Below, piece after piece: positions 17,722-48,400 of a DNA stretch of 64,000 bases. The notes below the pieces were generated by a model. The model saw only the letters and a list, made by a program, of their open reading frames with translations, ran no database searches and was not told the origin of the DNA. The stretch is taken from positions 3,428-67,427 of IMG/VR virus record IMGVR_UViG_2595698876_000001, one strand, 5' to 3'. The position numbers and the translations under genes are program-made. This DNA is from a virus (lineage: Duplodnaviria; Heunggongvirae; Uroviricota; Caudoviricetes; Herelleviridae). The stretch's first letter is position 1, and every line of letters begins with the position of its first letter.

Positions 17722-17803
17722 TCTCCTTTAGATTTATTGAACTCCTTACTTTTATTATATCATATTCCCGTTCGTAGCGGTTCCTCCTCTCTCTTATACA
17801 CTT

Positions 17804-27523: not shown

Positions 27524-27601
27524 ATGTCCACGAAAATAGGGAGTTGCCTTATATATGGTATAATAGAAGTAAGGACATTTCCAACAAAATCAACTACTTA
27601 G

Positions 27602-39424: not shown

Positions 39425-39452
39425 TTGACATTTTTTAGAAGCTATGTATACT
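39425..39452 (+). promoter_or_regulatory. sigmaA-type promoter inside tail module
   Basis: TTGACA-16-TATACT. Confidence 0.65.
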
Positions 39453-39473
39453 AAAAGTAAAGGAGGAGATAAT

Positions 39474-39746
39474 ATGAAGAAGCCAACGAAATTAGTTAAG
39501 TACATTGCGGACAAGCTGTTACCAGACAACGCGAAAATTACATACTTCGATAGCCTAATCATCTACTTGGAGGATAGTTACGGATGTGAGTTCGTTATAA
39601 AGGTAGTTACAACACCTCACACTATTAGAGCATTTCTATATCATTGCGACTATACTTACGATGATGAGTGTTACCTAGTGCAACACGAAACATACATTAA
39701 AGGAATGACGTTTACAATTACACAAATCAAGGAGGAATTGAAATGA
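39474..39746 (+). CDS. hypothetical protein (~90 aa)
   Basis: AGGAGG SD before MKKPT. Confidence 0.7.
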   Translation: MKKPTKLVKYIADKLLPDNAKITYFDSLIIYLEDSYGCEFVIKVVTTPHTIRAFLYHCDYTYDDECYLVQHETYIKGMTFTITQIKEELK

Positions 39747-40261
39747 GTCATATCGATAGAATGAGAGATTTAATGAGACAAGCTAGTTTCCATCAACTAT
39801 ACGGAGAAGTATCAGCACCAAAAAATATTAAGATGTATAAGAACACAGAAGTAAACACAGAAGAGGCTAAAAAGAAACTAAAACTATACTTTGATATTGA
39901 CGGTAAGATGCGAGAGGACGAACGGAAATTCCACGACCAATTTAGGGAATGGTCAAACTCAATAGCGATGAAAATGACAGAAATGCGAGATATGAAGTTT
40001 CGTAAATGGTTGTATACCGTTGTACTTTCTGACTTCGGTTATGACTTCATTGGTTGTAAAATGGAAAGTGTCGAACCTAACCACATTAGGTTGACTAATG
40101 TATTATCCGATGATTCCTTAGATTTATATGTAGAGCGTACAGAGGTAGAAAACTTAACTAACCAGTGGATGGAGTTACAATGGGAACTACACCAAAAAGG
40201 CGAAAAAATAAAAGAAGGTAGAGATTTTTTGAATATGGAGATTAAACTAGTCCATAATTAA
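39743..40261 (+). CDS. hypothetical protein (172 aa)
   Basis: GGAGG SD; ATGA overlap. Confidence 0.75.
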   Translation: MSHIDRMRDLMRQASFHQLYGEVSAPKNIKMYKNTEVNTEEAKKKLKLYFDIDGKMREDERKFHDQFREWSNSIAMKMTEMRDMKFRKWLYTVVLSDFGYDFIGCKMESVEPNHIRLTNVLSDDSLDLYVERTEVENLTNQWMELQWELHQKGEKIKEGRDFLNMEIKLVHN

Positions 40262-40308
40262 TATATTAAAAAAATGTTACAAGAAGCTGTCGTAATGATG
40301 GCTTCTTT

Positions 40309-40318
40309 TGTTATATTA
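40309..40318 (+). promoter_or_regulatory. late-promoter motif
   Basis: TGTTATATTA; implies true start at ATG 40346. Confidence 0.7.
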
Positions 40319-40345
40319 TATGTATGTTCAGAAAGGAGTGAAGTC

Positions 40346-42718
40346 ATGTCTAGTCCGTATCATGCTGCATTTAGAAATGGGATGTACACAGGACAAAATG
40401 AGGATTTATTTAGGCACCTAGAACTAGACTTGTTAAAAGCAATCAAAAAAGTAAACGGAATTACACCGGATGAAAACGGTAATATCAACATACCTGTCGG
40501 GGGTAGCTCTGAACTAGCACATTTAGAAGATGTTAGTTTGGTAGGTATGACCGATAAAGATGTTCTTACATATGACTCCGCTTTAGGTAAATGGGTTCCA
40601 GCACCGAATCAAGGTAAAGCTTCTTCATATATCTTAGAGTTAAATAAGTGGGGTATAAGTAATGTAGGAACAAATGCAACATCGACAACTACAGGAATTA
40701 ACAACGCATTAGATTGGGCTAGTAGGAATGGTTTTACAGATGTAGTATTCCCTAAAGGAACCTACCTTATTAGCAAGGATAGTGCGGTAAAACCTGTAGA
40801 TTATTTAACAATAGATTTAAACGGAGCTACACTAAAGAAGGAAGCGAACAACCTTCAAACATACAGCGTAGTTAGTTTTAAGCATAACCAGAAATACGTA
40901 ACAATTAAGAATGGTAAAATAGTAGGTGACAAAGACTTACACGACTATAGTAGTGGCGGAACGCATGAAGGTGGATACGGTATAGAGTTAGGTAGTTTTT
41001 CTCCTCCAGCAGATGGTGGCAATAACTTACGATTTATTGTATTAGAAAATTTAGAAATATCTGATTTTACAGGAGATTCTATCACACTGAATAGTTCCTT
41101 TGGTCAGATTCTACCTACACCTACAAACCTAGCATCATCATGGGAACTAGGAACGATAAGCAATACAGATGGTACTCTTGCTGCTAGTACAACTAAAATC
41201 CGTTCAACATTAAAGTTCGATATGACGCAGCCACTTATTACAAAATATAAATATTTCGGTTTATATGGAAATGGATATGGTGGATTAGGCTCTGATATTA
41301 AATGTGATTACTACGATGTAATTTTCTATAAATCGAACGACACATTTATATCTTCTGCTAAGAGTGTGCAGTTCTTCGATGAAGTAGAAGTACCAACTGG
41401 AGCAAGTTACGCAAGAGTCGTACTTCACCAATCTAACGTACCTGTAGCAGCTAACTGTACAATAAATGTGCGCGTCCCTACTTTTGCACAGTTCGTGTAC
41501 ATAAACAAGTGCGACTTACACCATAATAGAAGACAAGGTATATCTGTTTGTGGAGCGAAAAACCTTTACATAGATGGAAACCAGATACATCATATTTCGG
41601 GTGTAGACCCACAATCCGGAATAGATATAGAAGATGGATACGACCTAAACCAGATGATACACATTAATAAAAACTTCTTCTACAGCAATGAGAAGTACAA
41701 CATCATCGTGGTTAACGGTAAGAACATCTTTGTTAAAGACAATGTATTGTTACCTCCTACTAACAGCGGGTACGTAAGTTTAGCGATAAACGGTGGAGCA
41801 GATAAAGTCGTAGCTACAGGTAATATCATTAGATTTAGTAAGGTTACCCTGTTCGGTGAAGTTTTATTCGCTAACAATTACATGTACGGATGTCAGGTTA
41901 CATCTACTGTAGCATACGCAACAAAACAAACGAAGATAGAAGGATGTACATTCCATAACTGTAAATACGTATCAGATAACCCATATCCATTCTCTGTTAC
42001 TGTAGATAACTGTTCATTCTTCAACGATGTGGATAAGCTAAATGCGTTATCAACTAGCATCCAATGGACGTTAGAAGTAAAACAAGAGCCGCAATCCTTT
42101 GTTAACTGTATCTTTCAAGGTAAAGATGTAAACTACTTGACTTACGTAGGTAGCGCTGCATCATTTAAACAAGGTTGGATATTCCAGAACTGTAAGTTTA
42201 AAAATACAAAAGACACTGGGTTACTTTGCGGTACATACGTTAACTGTGATTTCACTGAATTAAGCACATTCATGAATATATCCAGAAATACGGATGCTAC
42301 GAACTCCCTAGAATTAGTTAACTGTAACTTCTCTTCTACAGATGGTAACAACGCTCTATTAACTGTTACACAATTAAAATCATTCATCATGAAGGGTTGT
42401 AAAGTAGATAAGACTAGTGGATTCATTATCACAGTTCAGAACGTTAATGACGAAGTATTCATAACAGATAATATCCTTAAACAAACAAACGACGCATTAC
42501 CTAGAGCTATGGTTACAGTTGAGGCGACTTTCACAGGTAGCGCAATCATCATGAAGGATAATTACTTCCGGGCAAAGAACAATTCTCAAGTTGCTATAAA
42601 TGATTTAACAACAAATACACCAGCTTTTGTAATACAAAATAACGTCCTAAACAAAGCTACAATCAATAGTAGCAGCACATTAAAATCTAACAATGTAGTT
42701 AACGGAGTAGTGCAGTAA
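40346..42718 (+). CDS. beta-helix (pectin-lyase-like) spike/depolymerase candidate (790 aa)
   Basis: INNALDWA...VVFPKGTYLI pectate-lyase-type start; HHNRRQGISV, SGIDIE repeats; AAGGAG SD. Confidence 0.75.
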   Translation: MSSPYHAAFRNGMYTGQNEDLFRHLELDLLKAIKKVNGITPDENGNINIPVGGSSELAHLEDVSLVGMTDKDVLTYDSALGKWVPAPNQGKASSYILELNKWGISNVGTNATSTTTGINNALDWASRNGFTDVVFPKGTYLISKDSAVKPVDYLTIDLNGATLKKEANNLQTYSVVSFKHNQKYVTIKNGKIVGDKDLHDYSSGGTHEGGYGIELGSFSPPADGGNNLRFIVLENLEISDFTGDSITLNSSFGQILPTPTNLASSWELGTISNTDGTLAASTTKIRSTLKFDMTQPLITKYKYFGLYGNGYGGLGSDIKCDYYDVIFYKSNDTFISSAKSVQFFDEVEVPTGASYARVVLHQSNVPVAANCTINVRVPTFAQFVYINKCDLHHNRRQGISVCGAKNLYIDGNQIHHISGVDPQSGIDIEDGYDLNQMIHINKNFFYSNEKYNIIVVNGKNIFVKDNVLLPPTNSGYVSLAINGGADKVVATGNIIRFSKVTLFGEVLFANNYMYGCQVTSTVAYATKQTKIEGCTFHNCKYVSDNPYPFSVTVDNCSFFNDVDKLNALSTSIQWTLEVKQEPQSFVNCIFQGKDVNYLTYVGSAASFKQGWIFQNCKFKNTKDTGLLCGTYVNCDFTELSTFMNISRNTDATNSLELVNCNFSSTDGNNALLTVTQLKSFIMKGCKVDKTSGFIITVQNVNDEVFITDNILKQTNDALPRAMVTVEATFTGSAIIMKDNYFRAKNNSQVAINDLTTNTPAFVIQNNVLNKATINSSSTLKSNNVVNGVVQ

Positions 42719-42859
42719 TATACGCGCTACTCTTTTCTTATTGACTTAAAGTTTATTACAATACCTTTACAATTTCTTTACATCCAATGATTTCCTGTAC
42801 ATTTGTGTTACATTAGTAAGTATAAGCAATACAAATATAATGTAGAGGAGAACGAATTA

Positions 42860-43474
42860 ATGAAAACATTGAGGAATATTGTAACAACATTAGCAATCGG
42901 TACAGGAATTTTGTTCGTGGGAGGTCACAGCGCACAAGCAAGTGAGACAAGCGTAGTAGATTACCTATACCAAAAAGGGGAAGACCACAGCTTCTCAAAT
43001 CGTAGTGAACTAGCTTCTAATTACGGAATCGTTAACTACACAGGAACAGCGCAACAAAATATTAATCTATTATCGTTACTAAAAGGTAACACAGGAGAAG
43101 TAGTACATACGCAAGCTCCGGTTCAAGCGGAACCTAAGAAAGAAGTAGCTGCTCAAAAACCACAAGGTAAAACAATTACAGTTCTAGCTACAGCATACAC
43201 AGCAGACCCAGCAGAGAATGGCGGTACATACGATGGCGTAGTTAAAACAGCAATGGGGCATAACTTATCTGCAAACCCTAGTATGAAAATGGTCGCAGTT
43301 GACCCTAGAGTAATTCCACTTGGTTCTCGTATCTATGTAGAAGGATATGGTGAAGCAATCGCGGGAGATACTGGTGGAGCAATCAAAGGTAATCGAATCG
43401 ATGTATTGATGCCATCTAAATCTCAATCTAGCGACTGGGGAAGAAAAACAGTACAAGTTACAATCCTAAACTAA
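42860..43474 (+). CDS. secreted 3D-domain (YocH-like) cell-wall hydrolase
   Basis: Signal peptide ending AQA; SVVDYL...NYTGTAQQN domain (DUF3597-like); ATAY...VAVDPRVIPLGS...DTGGAIKGNRIDV. Confidence 0.88.
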   Translation: MKTLRNIVTTLAIGTGILFVGGHSAQASETSVVDYLYQKGEDHSFSNRSELASNYGIVNYTGTAQQNINLLSLLKGNTGEVVHTQAPVQAEPKKEVAAQKPQGKTITVLATAYTADPAENGGTYDGVVKTAMGHNLSANPSMKMVAVDPRVIPLGSRIYVEGYGEAIAGDTGGAIKGNRIDVLMPSKSQSSDWGRKTVQVTILN

Positions 43475-43486
43475 TAGACTATTAAG

Positions 43487-43518
43487 TAGACACGAAAAAT
43501 AATCGTGTCTATTTTTTT
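43487..43518 (+). terminator. intrinsic terminator
   Basis: TAGACACGA/TCGTGTCTA followed by T run. Confidence 0.85.
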
Positions 43519-43527
43519 ATTTTATTG

Positions 43528-43556
43528 TTGACTTTTGGGAAATGCCTAATTATACT
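43528..43556 (+). promoter_or_regulatory. sigmaA-type promoter
   Basis: TTGACT-17-TATACT. Confidence 0.75.
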
Positions 43557-43587
43557 AAAGCTATCAAATGACAAGGAGATGCATAAA

Positions 43588-44256
43588 ATGACATCAACAT
43601 TTACAGAAAGACAAGCTATAGAGAGAATGATGAATTATATCGAAGAGGAGCGCGCTCGTTTATATACAGAGTACGTAAAGAACTTAGATAGATTAAGAGA
43701 GTTAGACGACATTGATAGAATGAGTGAACAAGCTGCTAAAGTAGACGAGGTTATGTCAGAAGCTTACGAGCGCCCAATGGTATCTATCGAAGATGTAGAA
43801 CAAGCTAATAAGAACGCAAGAGAAGAGTTCAGAAAAATAATCCCGGAAGTTATGGAAGAAATAAAAGCTCATTTCGATAAGATGAAGGAAGAAGAAAAAG
43901 AGCAACGAGATAACGACTTCCAACCTACAAACTTATGTAACGAAGTTGAGCAATATCTTCCGCCTCTTAACGTGGACGAGCCTAAAGAAAAACCTTCTGC
44001 TGGTCTTGAACCCGATAAGTTAGAAATGAGAAAGACACTTATGAGAGGTAGTACAAACGATAACAAAGTCGTTGCTCAATTCGCTAAAGTGATTCTTAAA
44101 GAGAATATTGAACCAATGAAATCCAAAGACTTAGTTACAGCTCTAAACAAAGCAGGAATCCAAATGAACCATCCAAATGAAACATTAAGACAAATTAGAA
44201 CATACGAACCAACAATCAAGAACGTAGCTCATGGTTACTATCAATATGTTAAGTAA
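43588..44256 (+). CDS. Rok-like nucleoid-associated/silencer protein (222 aa)
   Basis: N-terminal FTERQAI...LRELD coiled coil and C-terminal winged-helix-like domain ending PTIKNVAHGYY resemble recalled B. subtilis Rok; AAGGAG SD. Confidence 0.6.
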   Translation: MTSTFTERQAIERMMNYIEEERARLYTEYVKNLDRLRELDDIDRMSEQAAKVDEVMSEAYERPMVSIEDVEQANKNAREEFRKIIPEVMEEIKAHFDKMKEEEKEQRDNDFQPTNLCNEVEQYLPPLNVDEPKEKPSAGLEPDKLEMRKTLMRGSTNDNKVVAQFAKVILKENIEPMKSKDLVTALNKAGIQMNHPNETLRQIRTYEPTIKNVAHGYYQYVK

Positions 44257-44264
44257 TTTGCTAG

Positions 44265-44296
44265 AGGACTATCCAACAAGTGGGTAGTCCTTTTTA
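44265..44296 (+). terminator. intrinsic terminator
   Basis: AGGACTATCC/GGGTAGTCCT followed by T run. Confidence 0.85.
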
Positions 44297-44326
44297 TGTT
44301 ATAATAGATATATAGGGAAAAGCAAG

Positions 44327-44336
44327 TGCTATATTA
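44327..44336 (+). promoter_or_regulatory. late-promoter motif
   Basis: TGCTATATTA, preceded by TGTTATAAT at 44297. Confidence 0.7.
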
Positions 44337-44364
44337 TTAATAGATAACTTAGGAGGCAAGGAAA

Positions 44365-44784
44365 ATGACAAATATACAAAAAGACATTGAGCATTTACAA
44401 GAGAAGAAAACGGCTGAACAGGTGGAAGCAGAAAAGCAACACGAGCAACGAGAAACGATTGATAGAATCATTCGAGGAAAGAATGATATCTTCACGAAAC
44501 ACTACGAATTGCCGGAGCTAGATTTAGACTTTATTATCTCAATCAAAGCACCAAACGCAATCGAGGTGGGTAAAATCCAAGCGATGACATCAAGCTACTT
44601 AAGTGGAATGAACGTATACATGTCACAGTACTACTTAATTGTGTATCAAACGTTAGCATCCATTAGAGTATGCGGCAAAGAAATTCCAGAATTTTTAAAA
44701 AATGATGAAGATATCTACAATTTAGAAATCTTATATGCTATCGGGGTTGATTATTCCGCATGGATGAATACCTTTCGCAGATAA
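44365..44784 (+). CDS. tail assembly chaperone (G-like)
   Basis: Position two genes before tape measure; AGGAGG SD. Confidence 0.75.
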   Translation: MTNIQKDIEHLQEKKTAEQVEAEKQHEQRETIDRIIRGKNDIFTKHYELPELDLDFIISIKAPNAIEVGKIQAMTSSYLSGMNVYMSQYYLIVYQTLASIRVCGKEIPEFLKNDEDIYNLEILYAIGVDYSAWMNTFRR

Positions 44785-44830
44785 GGTAAAGCACTTTGGC
44801 GGATTAAAACAGTTAGCTCGTACTCCTTAT

Positions 44831-45409
44831 ATGCGAAACCTCTGGGCGCTAATGAGAGAGTTCAAAATATTACCAACTAGTCCAGAGTTTAAAGAGCTAT
44901 CCGATATACAAATAGATTTAATGCTATATTCTATGGCGGAAGACGCTAGAGAAATGGAACGTGCACGTAAAGGCGTACAAGGCGATGGCGACCACTACGA
45001 TTCATCATTCGATGAAGAAGTATGGAACCGCGATGTTGGCGATTGGGAAGTACTTAAAGACGGTCACGATGGTACTAAGATTGCTGAACAGATTAATGCC
45101 ATGACTAAAGCGGAAGACCTTAAAAACCTTGAGGGTCGATTCGACGGACTGGACGAGTACAATGAACATCTGGAAAATGGTGGCATGACATCTCGTGAAT
45201 CCGAAGTCACTCAATACATAAACAAACAGCTAGAGAAAGCCGAGGAGCTTGCTAGAGAACGTTCTAGAGGCGGTAATGGTAAACGTCTAGTTGATGACCG
45301 GGAGCTTGCTGGCGAGGCTCCACAGTCCGATTACGCATTGAATAAGAAAGTAATGGACAAGGCTATTGCATTATTCGAAGACGATGAAGACGAATACACA
45401 GCACTTTAA
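44831..45409 (+). CDS. tail assembly chaperone (T-like), probably reached by +1 frameshift
   Basis: No SD; frame open from 44768; ACC_TTT_CGC at 44770-44778. Confidence 0.7.
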   Translation: MRNLWALMREFKILPTSPEFKELSDIQIDLMLYSMAEDAREMERARKGVQGDGDHYDSSFDEEVWNRDVGDWEVLKDGHDGTKIAEQINAMTKAEDLKNLEGRFDGLDEYNEHLENGGMTSRESEVTQYINKQLEKAEELARERSRGGNGKRLVDDRELAGEAPQSDYALNKKVMDKAIALFEDDEDEYTAL

Positions 45410-45468
45410 AGTGGGTAGAGGCGATTTTCCCTCTACTTTTCTTTAAGTAAAAAGGATGGTGAGGGAAC

Positions 45469-48400
45469 TTGGCTAATAAAGAAACATTTATATTTGATGT
45501 CAATGCCGATATAGAAAAAGCCATGAAAGGCTTAAATAAAGTTAAGCAAGCTATGGATGATATCGACAGGCTCCAGAAAAAAGGAGAAAGTCGCGGTAAC
45601 ACTACAAATGAGAGTGACATCCTTAATAGTATGAAACATGCGAAGCAAGCAGCGCAGGAGTATAAGAAACTCCAATCGATGCTTAAAGACTTGGATAAGA
45701 GTCTTAAAGGTTCGAACCAACGTATGTTCAAGGATAATGACTCCGAGCGAATGAAAAAGGTTACTGGCGTTGACATGAAATCAAAGCAGGATTACCAGAA
45801 GTTCGTTCAAGCACAAAGACGTGAACTAGACCGTACATACACAAAAGCAATGAACGCTCAACAGAAGATGGCTCGTTTTGGTCAAACACATACTAAGAAC
45901 TTTAGTACGAACTACCAACAAAAAGGTATCATGCACGTTGATACAAAAAACCTAGACGAAGCTAAGAAAACTGTAAAGGGTATCCTCTCTGACATTAACG
46001 CTTCATCAGGTCAGTTGGATAATGTACTACAGCAAATCAGGGAAGCTAAGAAACTTGATAGACGTTCAGAAAGTTTAGCTCGTCGTGCAAGCGCTTCCGG
46101 GTACATGTCACATCAACAAGCATCTAACTTTACTAGAGATTACCAAACTGTTAATGGTTCATACAAAAATAGTAAAGATGCTAACTTAAATCGGTTAACA
46201 GAAATCTCTACACAGTTAACAGACTTTGCAAAACAGCTTAATACGATTGAGTCAAATCCTAACGCAACAAATAAGGATATGCAACAACGTGTGAAGTTAC
46301 AAAATAACATTAGAGCATTAGACCAAGAATGGACAGCTCGTACAAAACTGAATAAGATTTTAGAAACTACTACATCTAATATGCAATCGTATCATGAATC
46401 TTTAGTAGGTACAAAACAAAAAGCAGATAGAAATACAGTTCAAGGAATGATTAGCGAACGCGCCCCGGCTATCGGTATGGCTGTTACAGGTGCAGTCGGA
46501 GCGACTATCGGTGGTCTATATAGTCAAGGTGGCGCACTAAGTAAAGAGATGCGACCTAGCGAAGTCTACATCGGTCAACAAACTGGTATGGATGGTTCTA
46601 ACTGGAGAACTGATATTCGTAACAATGCTATGACAGCCGGAAAAGCTAATAAATTAGGTTTCTTAGGTACAGATATGTTAGCATTCCAAGAAAACTATTT
46701 AACAGCTAGAGGTAACACTGGTCGTAAGGATTTACAAGATGCCATGAGCGGGCAAGCAACATTTAGCCGTTCTACTGGTATCAGCGCACAAGACACACGA
46801 CAATTCTTTGATACAGCTTATCGTAGTGGCGGCGTAACTGGAAGCTCAACAAAACAATTCCAGAATGCATTCTTAGGAGCTATCAAACAGAGTGGAATGG
46901 AAGGTCGTGAAAAAGACCAACTTAAAGCTCTAGATGGTATCTTACAAGGAATGACACAGGGACGTTCTATCACAAACCAAGACATGATGCAAACAATGGG
47001 ATTACAAGCAGCTTTAGCTAATTCCGGCGTATCCGCATTACAAGGTAGCAAAGGTGGTCAGGCGTTAGCTGGTCTTGATGAAGGTATCCGTAATGGATTC
47101 GGTGACGCTTCTGTTCGTGTAGCGTTCGGTCAAGGTACCGAGTATCAAGGTGTAGAAGGACGTTGGAAACTAAGACAGGAAATGGAAAAGGGTGTCGCTA
47201 GTCCAGAAATCGTTAATAAGATGGCTGGTATTGCTAAAGCAGCAGGTGGCGGTAATAAAGAAAGAGAGTACGAAGCTTTCGCATCCTTCGCCAATGAACG
47301 TCTTGGTGCCAAACTCACTACACAACAAGTACAAGGTATTATGGACGAATACAACAAGGGTAACTTATCTCAAGAAAACATAAGTAAAATTATGGAGAAG
47401 AACCAAACAGAAGGGGAAAAGGAATCTAAGAAGCGTCTTAGCAACTACCAGAAATCTAGTGCAGCTACGGATAGTCAAAGTGAAGCTACATCAGCAGAAC
47501 AAGCAGTAAAAATTAACGATATGGGTGAAGCAGTTCGTGAAGCTAATATTGCTCTAGGCGGATTACCAGCCCCTCTATATGGAGCTGTCCTTGCAGTAGG
47601 AGCATTTACAGCATCAATGTTAGCAGCAGCCGCATCGTTCGGACTTGCAGGTGTTATTAAAAACAAGTCACTAGGAACATATGGTGGTGGCGGAGGCGGA
47701 GCTGGCGGTGGAACTGTAACACCGGGAGGCGGTACTGGAGGTAGACCACCAAGCGGTGGCGTAGGTACTGGAGCAGGAGCTAATATTCCTCCGGGGTATG
47801 GGACATCTTCTGGTGGAGTAATTGTACCAGAAAGCGCAATACCACCAACAACACCAGCAATTCCGGGAGGCGCAACTCGACAATACTCTCAAGGTGGAGT
47901 CGGTAACTGGTTTAAAGGTTTATTCGACCCTAGCGCTAGAGCAGGTGGATTAGCTAACTTCGGTACAGGAGAAGCAATCGCCGGAGGAGCCGCAGTAGCA
48001 GGTGGAGCAGCAGCCGCAGCAAACGCGAATAAATTCCCTAACTTGTTCAAAGGCGGATTAAAAGGTAGTGTCGCTTTCAAAGGACTTAATAAAATTTTAC
48101 TACCTCTTGCAGCATTAACCGCTGTTAGTTCGATTTCTTCCGCAGAATCAGAAGACAAAGGTAAAGCTACTGGTAGTGCAATAGGCGGTATCGGTGGAGG
48201 TATCTTAGGTGGAGCAGCAGCCGGAGCAGCAGCAGGTTCTATTATCCCGGGTGCAGGTACATTAGTCGGAGGAGCTATCGGGTTAACTGGTGGTATCATC
48301 GGTTCTATCTTCGGTAGCAACATCGGTGAAAGTATCGGTGGATGGTTCGACCCAGAAAAAGGGAAAGAAAAGAGCATTGCACCAGAAGCTCCAAAATCAT

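Follow-up and report, generated by a model that had tools for sequence, protein, structure and literature searches.

A Rok-like gene with its own transcription signals

We analysed a 64,000-nucleotide stretch of DNA (the window) from a phage of the family Herelleviridae, whose full genome measures 165,238 bp and carries direct terminal repeats. The plus strand of the window encodes a 222-residue protein at positions 43588–44256, with the stop codon at 44254–44256. Its true start is ATG 43588, which lies 9 nucleotides 3′ of a ribosome-binding site, AAGGAG (43573–43578, plus strand), read directly from the sequence, and in an alignment of 21 phage homologues the N-termini concur with this start. 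As listed, the open reading frame opens at TTG 43525; we rejected this codon because it falls within the gene's own promoter and the homologues share the methionine encoded by ATG 43588. Both terminal peptides quoted in an initial annotation of this DNA (residues 5–40 and 165–220) are present in the plus-strand reading frame, and that annotation had placed the gene correctly.

The gene is enclosed by signals of its own. A sigma-A-type promoter, TTGACT-17-TATACT (43528–43556, plus strand), agrees with the consensus at 10 of 12 positions and would be expected to start transcription at about 43563; with its elements at TTGACT(43528) and TATACT(43556), it ranked best among the sigma-70-type sites found in a 3-kb scan. 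Ahead of it, an intrinsic terminator with a 12-bp stem and a T run (43484–43514, plus strand) ends the upstream gene for a 3D-domain peptidase and insulates the Rok-like unit. A second one, with a 13-bp stem and a T run (44263–44293, plus strand), closes the unit directly before a TGTTATAAT promoter at 44297. The near-consensus promoter and the hairpins on both sides bear out the initial proposal of a stand-alone transcription unit. Rfam gave nothing for the gene or its surroundings, no convincing antisense open reading frame lies opposite it, and its GC content of 36.6% is ordinary for the phage.

Within the protein, residues 1–45 (43588–43722, plus strand) make up a conserved N-terminal helix with the pattern FTER.AI...RLRELD, presumed to be a coiled-coil oligomerization region equivalent to region I of Rok. 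Residues 46–147 (43723–44028, plus strand) form a variable acidic linker, delimited by the homologue alignment, charge and an AF2 model that places a second helix at 67–109 and disorder at 108–145. The remainder, residues 148–222 and the stop codon (44029–44256, plus strand), consists of a basic tail and a Rok-type winged helix with a GYYQY wing/strand motif at its end, as assigned by Pfam, AF2 and hhalign.

The gene occupies a constant position in the tail module

The region is 92–94% identical to the Bacillus phages Phrodo, JarJar, Troll and Riley, and its identity to B4 is 84%; all are Bequatrovirus-type Bastillevirinae with hosts in the B. cereus group. Genes here run in the order sheath, tube, (spike), 3D-domain peptidase, Rok-like protein, two tail chaperones and tape measure. 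The Rok-like gene held the same position in all relatives examined, drawn from the genera Bequatrovirus, Caeruleovirus, Grisebachstrassevirus and Siophivirus, and family members on metagenomic contigs were found at this tail-module position as well. Such constancy points to selection on the gene. It is not explained by a DNA-silencing role and counts against such a role.

One way to account for the fixed position is a role linked to the tail or the virion, in which the protein would serve as an assembly factor or would be packaged and delivered with the DNA. The strict synteny within the tail module, across four genera and metagenomic contigs, speaks for this reading, but we consider it improbable, since the gene is insulated by terminators, its promoter belongs to a different class from those of the flanking tail genes, and its product groups with DNA-binding nucleoid proteins by both fold and homology. 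We also found no virion proteome that names a Rok-like protein. Furthermore, a smaller phage-like contig carries a 191-residue member (L039:6001–6576) that lies not beside tail genes but between amidase/TM2 lysis-type genes and genes for an ANT antirepressor and a primase. Because this member adjoins antirepressor and primase genes, the Rok-like family is not confined to the tail modules of myophages.

A profile search of 1.84 billion representatives returned 177 clusters at E ≤ 0.001, most of them 160–230 residues long and matching at both the N- and the C-terminus; the named members include cellular 'Rok-like winged helix domain-containing proteins'. Homologues were present in 93 records of a phage collection, 91 of which are Bacillus phages. 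The record MN364664.1, 'Xanthomonas phage Xoo-sp15' (UNVERIFIED_ORG), contains a Rok-like gene of the Bacillus-phage type at 37.5% identity, and its Xanthomonas host label is probably wrong. Scanning bacterial genomes with a pattern taken from the phage C-terminus gave no match, and the cellular forms, once aligned, were too varied to start a genome scan from.

The Rok winged-helix domain in relatives of this phage has already been flagged by automatic annotation. The B4 protein is named after the Rok domain in UniRef, a few phage records are labelled 'DNA binding protein' or 'putative repressor of ComK', and the longer homologues carry the precomputed Pfam entry PF26513. PHROG 4665, to which no function is assigned, matches the phage protein at 1.8e-71. 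In the literature we found no functional study of any phage Rok, and searches for Bastillevirinae transcriptomes and for a Goe3 virion proteome gave nothing usable. A 2020 review gives phage homologues of silencers for H-NS and Lsr2 only, and none for Rok (PMC7074111).

A host-type promoter suggests early expression

The upstream signals are conserved along with the gene. In all four genera, a terminator and then a near-consensus −35/−10 pair precede the Rok-like gene, within surrounding sequence that has diverged; the conserved versions of the promoter are TTGACT-17-TATACT, TTGACA-17-TATAAT and TTGACG-17-TATAAT. A hairpin and T run ahead of the promoter also occur in B4, BillyBob, Bcp1, Goe3 and TimeGriffin. 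In Siophivirus, the promoter sits before a small open reading frame that runs into the Rok-like gene.

The downstream tail-chaperone operon uses another promoter class, TGnTATAATAGA, which has no −35 element and an extended −10 element at 44297, and the same TGnTATAATAGA class serves the portal gene, the capsid gene and several further operons. Described as TGnTATAAT followed by AGA(G), again with no −35 element, sites of this second class lie at 27556, 31694, 44297, 51845 and 61231 on the plus strand and at 17762, 19263, 20670 and 24843 on the minus strand, and they precede the portal, major capsid, tail-chaperone and other operons. The TGnTATAAT promoters are a candidate middle/late class.

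A different set of sites lies outside the window, at 154,000–160,500 of the full genome, where about 15 strong −35/−10 sites, all on the plus strand, are packed into 6 kb. Their consensus is TAGTTG-TTGACT-TTTAG(A/T)AAA followed by TA(A/C)AAT, which also appears at 1081 and 163742 in the terminal repeats, and they are probably early or host-takeover promoters of small genes. The promoter of the Rok-like gene shares the TTG-TTGACT-TTT core with this array. In phage SPO1, early genes are read from sigma-A promoters of the host type, grouped together in a takeover module. Given a promoter that is near-consensus sigma-A and array-like, and the SPO1 analogy, we infer that the Rok-like gene is expressed early by host RNA polymerase. 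The 'early transcription unit' of the initial annotation thus stands as a stand-alone unit with a near-consensus sigma-A promoter; the word 'early' is a reading of that promoter.

Elsewhere in the tail module, a near-consensus sigma-A-type promoter, TTGACA-16-TATACT (39425–39453), lies just ahead of a small open reading frame at 39444–39746; the two may form a further self-contained unit of the early type amid the late genes. We also considered 15 soil 'metatranscriptome' runs containing a phage about 97% identical to ours as evidence of expression and rejected them, as their depth was flat over the whole 8 kb, like that of a DNA run. These runs date from 2018–2019, and several DNA runs also hold phage contigs about 97% identical over 40000–48000. 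The flat depth suggests DNA carry-over or a single sampling campaign, not expression.

Sequence and structure point to the Rok family

The initial annotation had named the protein a Rok homologue, and we examined this relationship at the level of both sequence and structure. The Pfam profile WH_Rok (PF23159) matched residues 169–218 with 31.0 bits against a cut-off of 27.6 (33 bits when the whole genome was scanned). Cellular Rok-like genes reach 80–100 bits against this profile, which makes the phage protein a divergent member of WH_Rok. We then compared profiles by hhalign, using 21 phage homologues and 13 Rok-like proteins of named Bacillaceae (Lederbergia, Siminovitchia, Jeotgalibacillus and Bacillus spp.). 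The C-terminal domain aligned with the cellular proteins at 94.3% probability (E 1e-7, 77 columns), and the N-terminal helix at 88.3% (E 2.9e-6, 38 columns, 37% identity, one 4-residue gap). The F-x-E-R...R-L-R-E-L-D signature of region I of the Rok family is present in the phage protein, and the named cellular Rok-like proteins start with MF(N/D/T)ER.AL and have RLRELD at about residue 40. Searching the PDB sequences with the protein, or with full-length, C-terminal or N-terminal profiles of the phage family, retrieved no Rok entry at E ≤ 10. The relationship is therefore remote, and the link to Rok was established only through Pfam, profile–profile comparison and structure.

The AF2 model contains a long N-terminal helix at residues 7–59 (pLDDT of about 95) and a winged helix at 159–220, which reached a pLDDT of 85 when folded alone. 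In a Foldseek search of the PDB, the Rok structures 5zuz and 5zux took ranks 1 and 2 (probability 1.00, TM 0.74). Residues 115–181 of 5zuz ranked first of 997 by VIA-align, with a Z score of 9.3 and an rmsd of 1.9 Å over 66 residues (runner-up Z 8.2). The best match of the full-length model among 550,129 Swiss-Prot models was B. subtilis Rok itself (O34857; E 6.5e-5, runner-up 6e-2), in an alignment that spans residues 4–222 of the phage protein and 1–181 of Rok. Similarity to the Rok winged helix was thus found by profile and by structure, the comparisons that the initial annotation had proposed, and its claim that both ends align to Rok is statistically supported by Pfam, by hhalign at both ends and by the structure matches. 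The C-terminal sequence of Rok that it had quoted proved exact, letter for letter, in the alignment with 5zuz. Taken together, the protein very probably belongs to the Rok family, and the phage gene is a divergent, phage-lineage branch of it.

Phage protein and B. subtilis Rok (O34857; 5ZUZ/5ZUX) are built on a common three-part plan. The conserved N-terminal helix, about 45 residues in length, has RLRELD at its end, the linker that follows is variable, and the C-terminal winged helix is basic in both. Identity within the domain is about 18–22%. Among the 21 phage homologues, residues 1–45 have a mean column identity of 75%, and the linker varies in length and sequence between conserved ends. 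In the best heptad register of the N-terminal helix, 7 of 11 a/d positions are hydrophobic, and from this pattern and the confidently modelled long helix we infer self-association through the N-terminal helix. The two proteins differ in that the phage N-terminal helix has a 4-residue deletion and the phage linker is acidic (net charge −14), whereas that of Rok is Gln-rich and neutral; the phage version also comes from a lytic phage whose likely hosts are mostly Rok-less. Although the C-terminal domain has a pI of 9.9 and a net charge of +7, the whole protein has a pI of 5.07. This overall acidity is atypical of nucleoid proteins and counts against a DNA-coating reading.

The phage protein lacks most of Rok's DNA-contact residues

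Rok reads the minor groove through N154, T156 and R174, aided by K116, K136, K164 and K171; in Rok homologues N154, K171 and R174 are reported as invariant and most important, and T156 as highly conserved (Duan et al. 2018, PMC6212790). We mapped these positions by hhalign, whose register matches the structural alignment, with numbering fixed by the alignment to 5zuz. Six of the seven contact residues are replaced in the phage protein: N154 corresponds to H195, T156 to N197, K164 to T205, K171 to N212, R174 to H215, and K116 to either S155 or D158. K136 is the sole contact residue kept, as K178. The phage protein therefore departs from the reported invariance of N154, K171 and R174, and position 215 varies across the phage family (H, Y, F, R or N).

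These replacements bear on the kind of DNA that the protein might recognize. With six of seven contact residues different, DNA binding by the phage protein is assumed from its fold and charge, and because the base-reading residues are replaced, the preference of Rok for AACTA/TACTA and TpA steps cannot be transferred to it. The initial expectation of a preference for AT-rich DNA is weakened by the changes at N154, T156, K171 and R174. Counts of the AACTA and TACTA pentamers across the phage genome showed neither distinctive enrichment nor a regional pattern.

The altered contact surface could also be that of a sequence-specific transcription regulator, an early-made, oligomeric winged-helix repressor of defined phage promoters (for example, the early array) that would aid the switch from early to middle expression. 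The base-reading residues not only differ from those of Rok but also vary among phage clades, as if specificity co-evolved with each phage's own sites; the repeated promoter family with conserved flanks could supply operators, and the Rok-like gene has an early-type promoter of its own. We found no operator-like repeat tied to the protein, however, and the Rok pentamer counts formed no telling pattern along the genome. Moreover, a coiled coil joined to a long linker is the architecture of a bridging protein, unlike that of classic dimeric repressors. We therefore consider a regulator of this type unlikely.

Most genomes of the probable host genus lack WH_Rok

By the usual account, Rok occurs in only a few Bacillus species. 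The initial annotation likewise took it to be known mainly from the B. subtilis group, a view that is out of date given that WH_Rok was present in 76 of 401 sampled Bacillales genomes and that the phage family comprises the 177 clusters described above. We recognized B. cereus-group genomes by their Nhe/Hbl enterotoxin operons, which identified 12 genomes of 4.5–5.7 Mb with hits of about 227 bits; none of these 12 carried WH_Rok. In the complete genus to which one of the 12 belongs, its identity being deduced from the Nhe operon, the domain was present in 3 of 71 genomes and not found in the other 68. The host genus is probably the B. cereus group.

One of the rare Rok-like genes of this probable B. 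cereus-group genus (L036:1477–1950, minus strand) keeps the Asn and has a His at the wing position of Rok R174. It is the sole open reading frame of at least 80 residues within 3.2 kb.

The host data bear most directly on the proposal that the phage protein is a dominant-negative anti-silencer, whose N-terminal helix would join host Rok or sRok in mixed oligomers and thereby disable the silencing of incoming phage DNA. There is precedent for this, as truncated or variant silencers of the H-NS family act in this manner and heteromers of Rok and sRok assemble in vitro (PMC7074111; PMC11841835). The N-terminal region of the phage protein is homologous to that of cellular Rok-like proteins, and relatives that infect Rok-bearing B. 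subtilis carry shorter versions, for which the part of a poison subunit is conceivable. However, because WH_Rok was not found in 68 of the 71 genomes of the probable host genus, poisoning of a host Rok is unlikely. The phage N-terminus is only 37% identical to the cellular one and has the 4-residue deletion in its helix. A subunit that served purely as a poison would have no use for the conserved, basic DNA-binding domain of the phage protein. For the present phage, the dominant-negative effect suggested in the initial annotation is thus very improbable.

A proposed role for the protein on DNA

We propose that the phage Rok-like protein is a self-associating DNA-binding protein that is made early from a host-type promoter and acts directly on DNA by coating or bridging it, a reading to which we assign a probability of roughly 0.6. 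Host RNA polymerase would transcribe the gene at the onset of infection. The N-terminal helix would then mediate self-association while the winged helix binds DNA, and the DNA would be coated or bridged much as by Rok, but with a sequence or shape preference of the protein's own, as expected from the replacement of the base-reading residues. The protein could act on the host nucleoid as the cell is taken over, or on DNA and promoters belonging to the phage itself. Since most of the likely hosts have no Rok of their own, we consider it more probable that the protein works on DNA directly than through a host silencer.

The phage also encodes an HU-type protein (Bac_DNA_binding, 43 bits) outside the window, at G000:96996–97253 of the full genome, which resembles TF1. 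TF1 of phage SPO1 is an HU-type, nucleoid-type DNA-binding protein of a large lytic Bacillus myophage, with an HU fold unrelated to the Rok-like winged helix. An existing HU/TF1-like protein counts against a coating role for the Rok-like protein, which would be an additional nucleoid-type factor.

Other mobile elements carry comparable genes. The sRok protein of plasmid pLS20 (RokLS20) is also the product of a Rok-family gene on a mobile element and is thought to act on the DNA of the recipient cell (PMC7074111; PMC11841835). It is internally shortened and close enough to Rok to substitute for it at comK, whereas the phage protein is longer than Rok (222 versus 191 residues). The phage protein is set apart from sRok by this length, by its altered contact residues and by a tblastn search against 72,556 plasmid records, which gave no match at E ≤ 0.01. 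The H-NS protein of phage EPV1 and the Lsr2-like proteins of actinophages and prophages (such as CgpS) embody the same concept, a virus with its own host-type silencer or bridger (PMC7074111), in protein families and folds unrelated to the Rok-like protein.

In a more specific form, which we offer tentatively and with rather low confidence, the Rok-like proteins of the Bastillevirinae would be an old phage-specific branch and a core component of an early 'viral chromatin', a coiled-coil bridger with a new, His-based groove-reading surface. Made from a host-type promoter in the first minutes of infection, such a protein would have one of two effects: in Rok-less hosts it would compact the nucleoid and silence it, or it would turn off the early promoter array of the phage itself to bring about the early-to-middle switch.

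At the level of sequence, our analysis establishes the homology and the gene anatomy of the Rok-like unit: a Rok-family gene fixed at one position across a subfamily of large lytic Bacillus phages, with its own host-type promoter and a remodelled contact surface. If the protein does bind DNA, it would represent a natural experiment on the re-targeting of the Rok winged helix. It would also be a candidate for the early handling of host or phage DNA by these phages, several of them under investigation as a means of controlling the B. cereus group.
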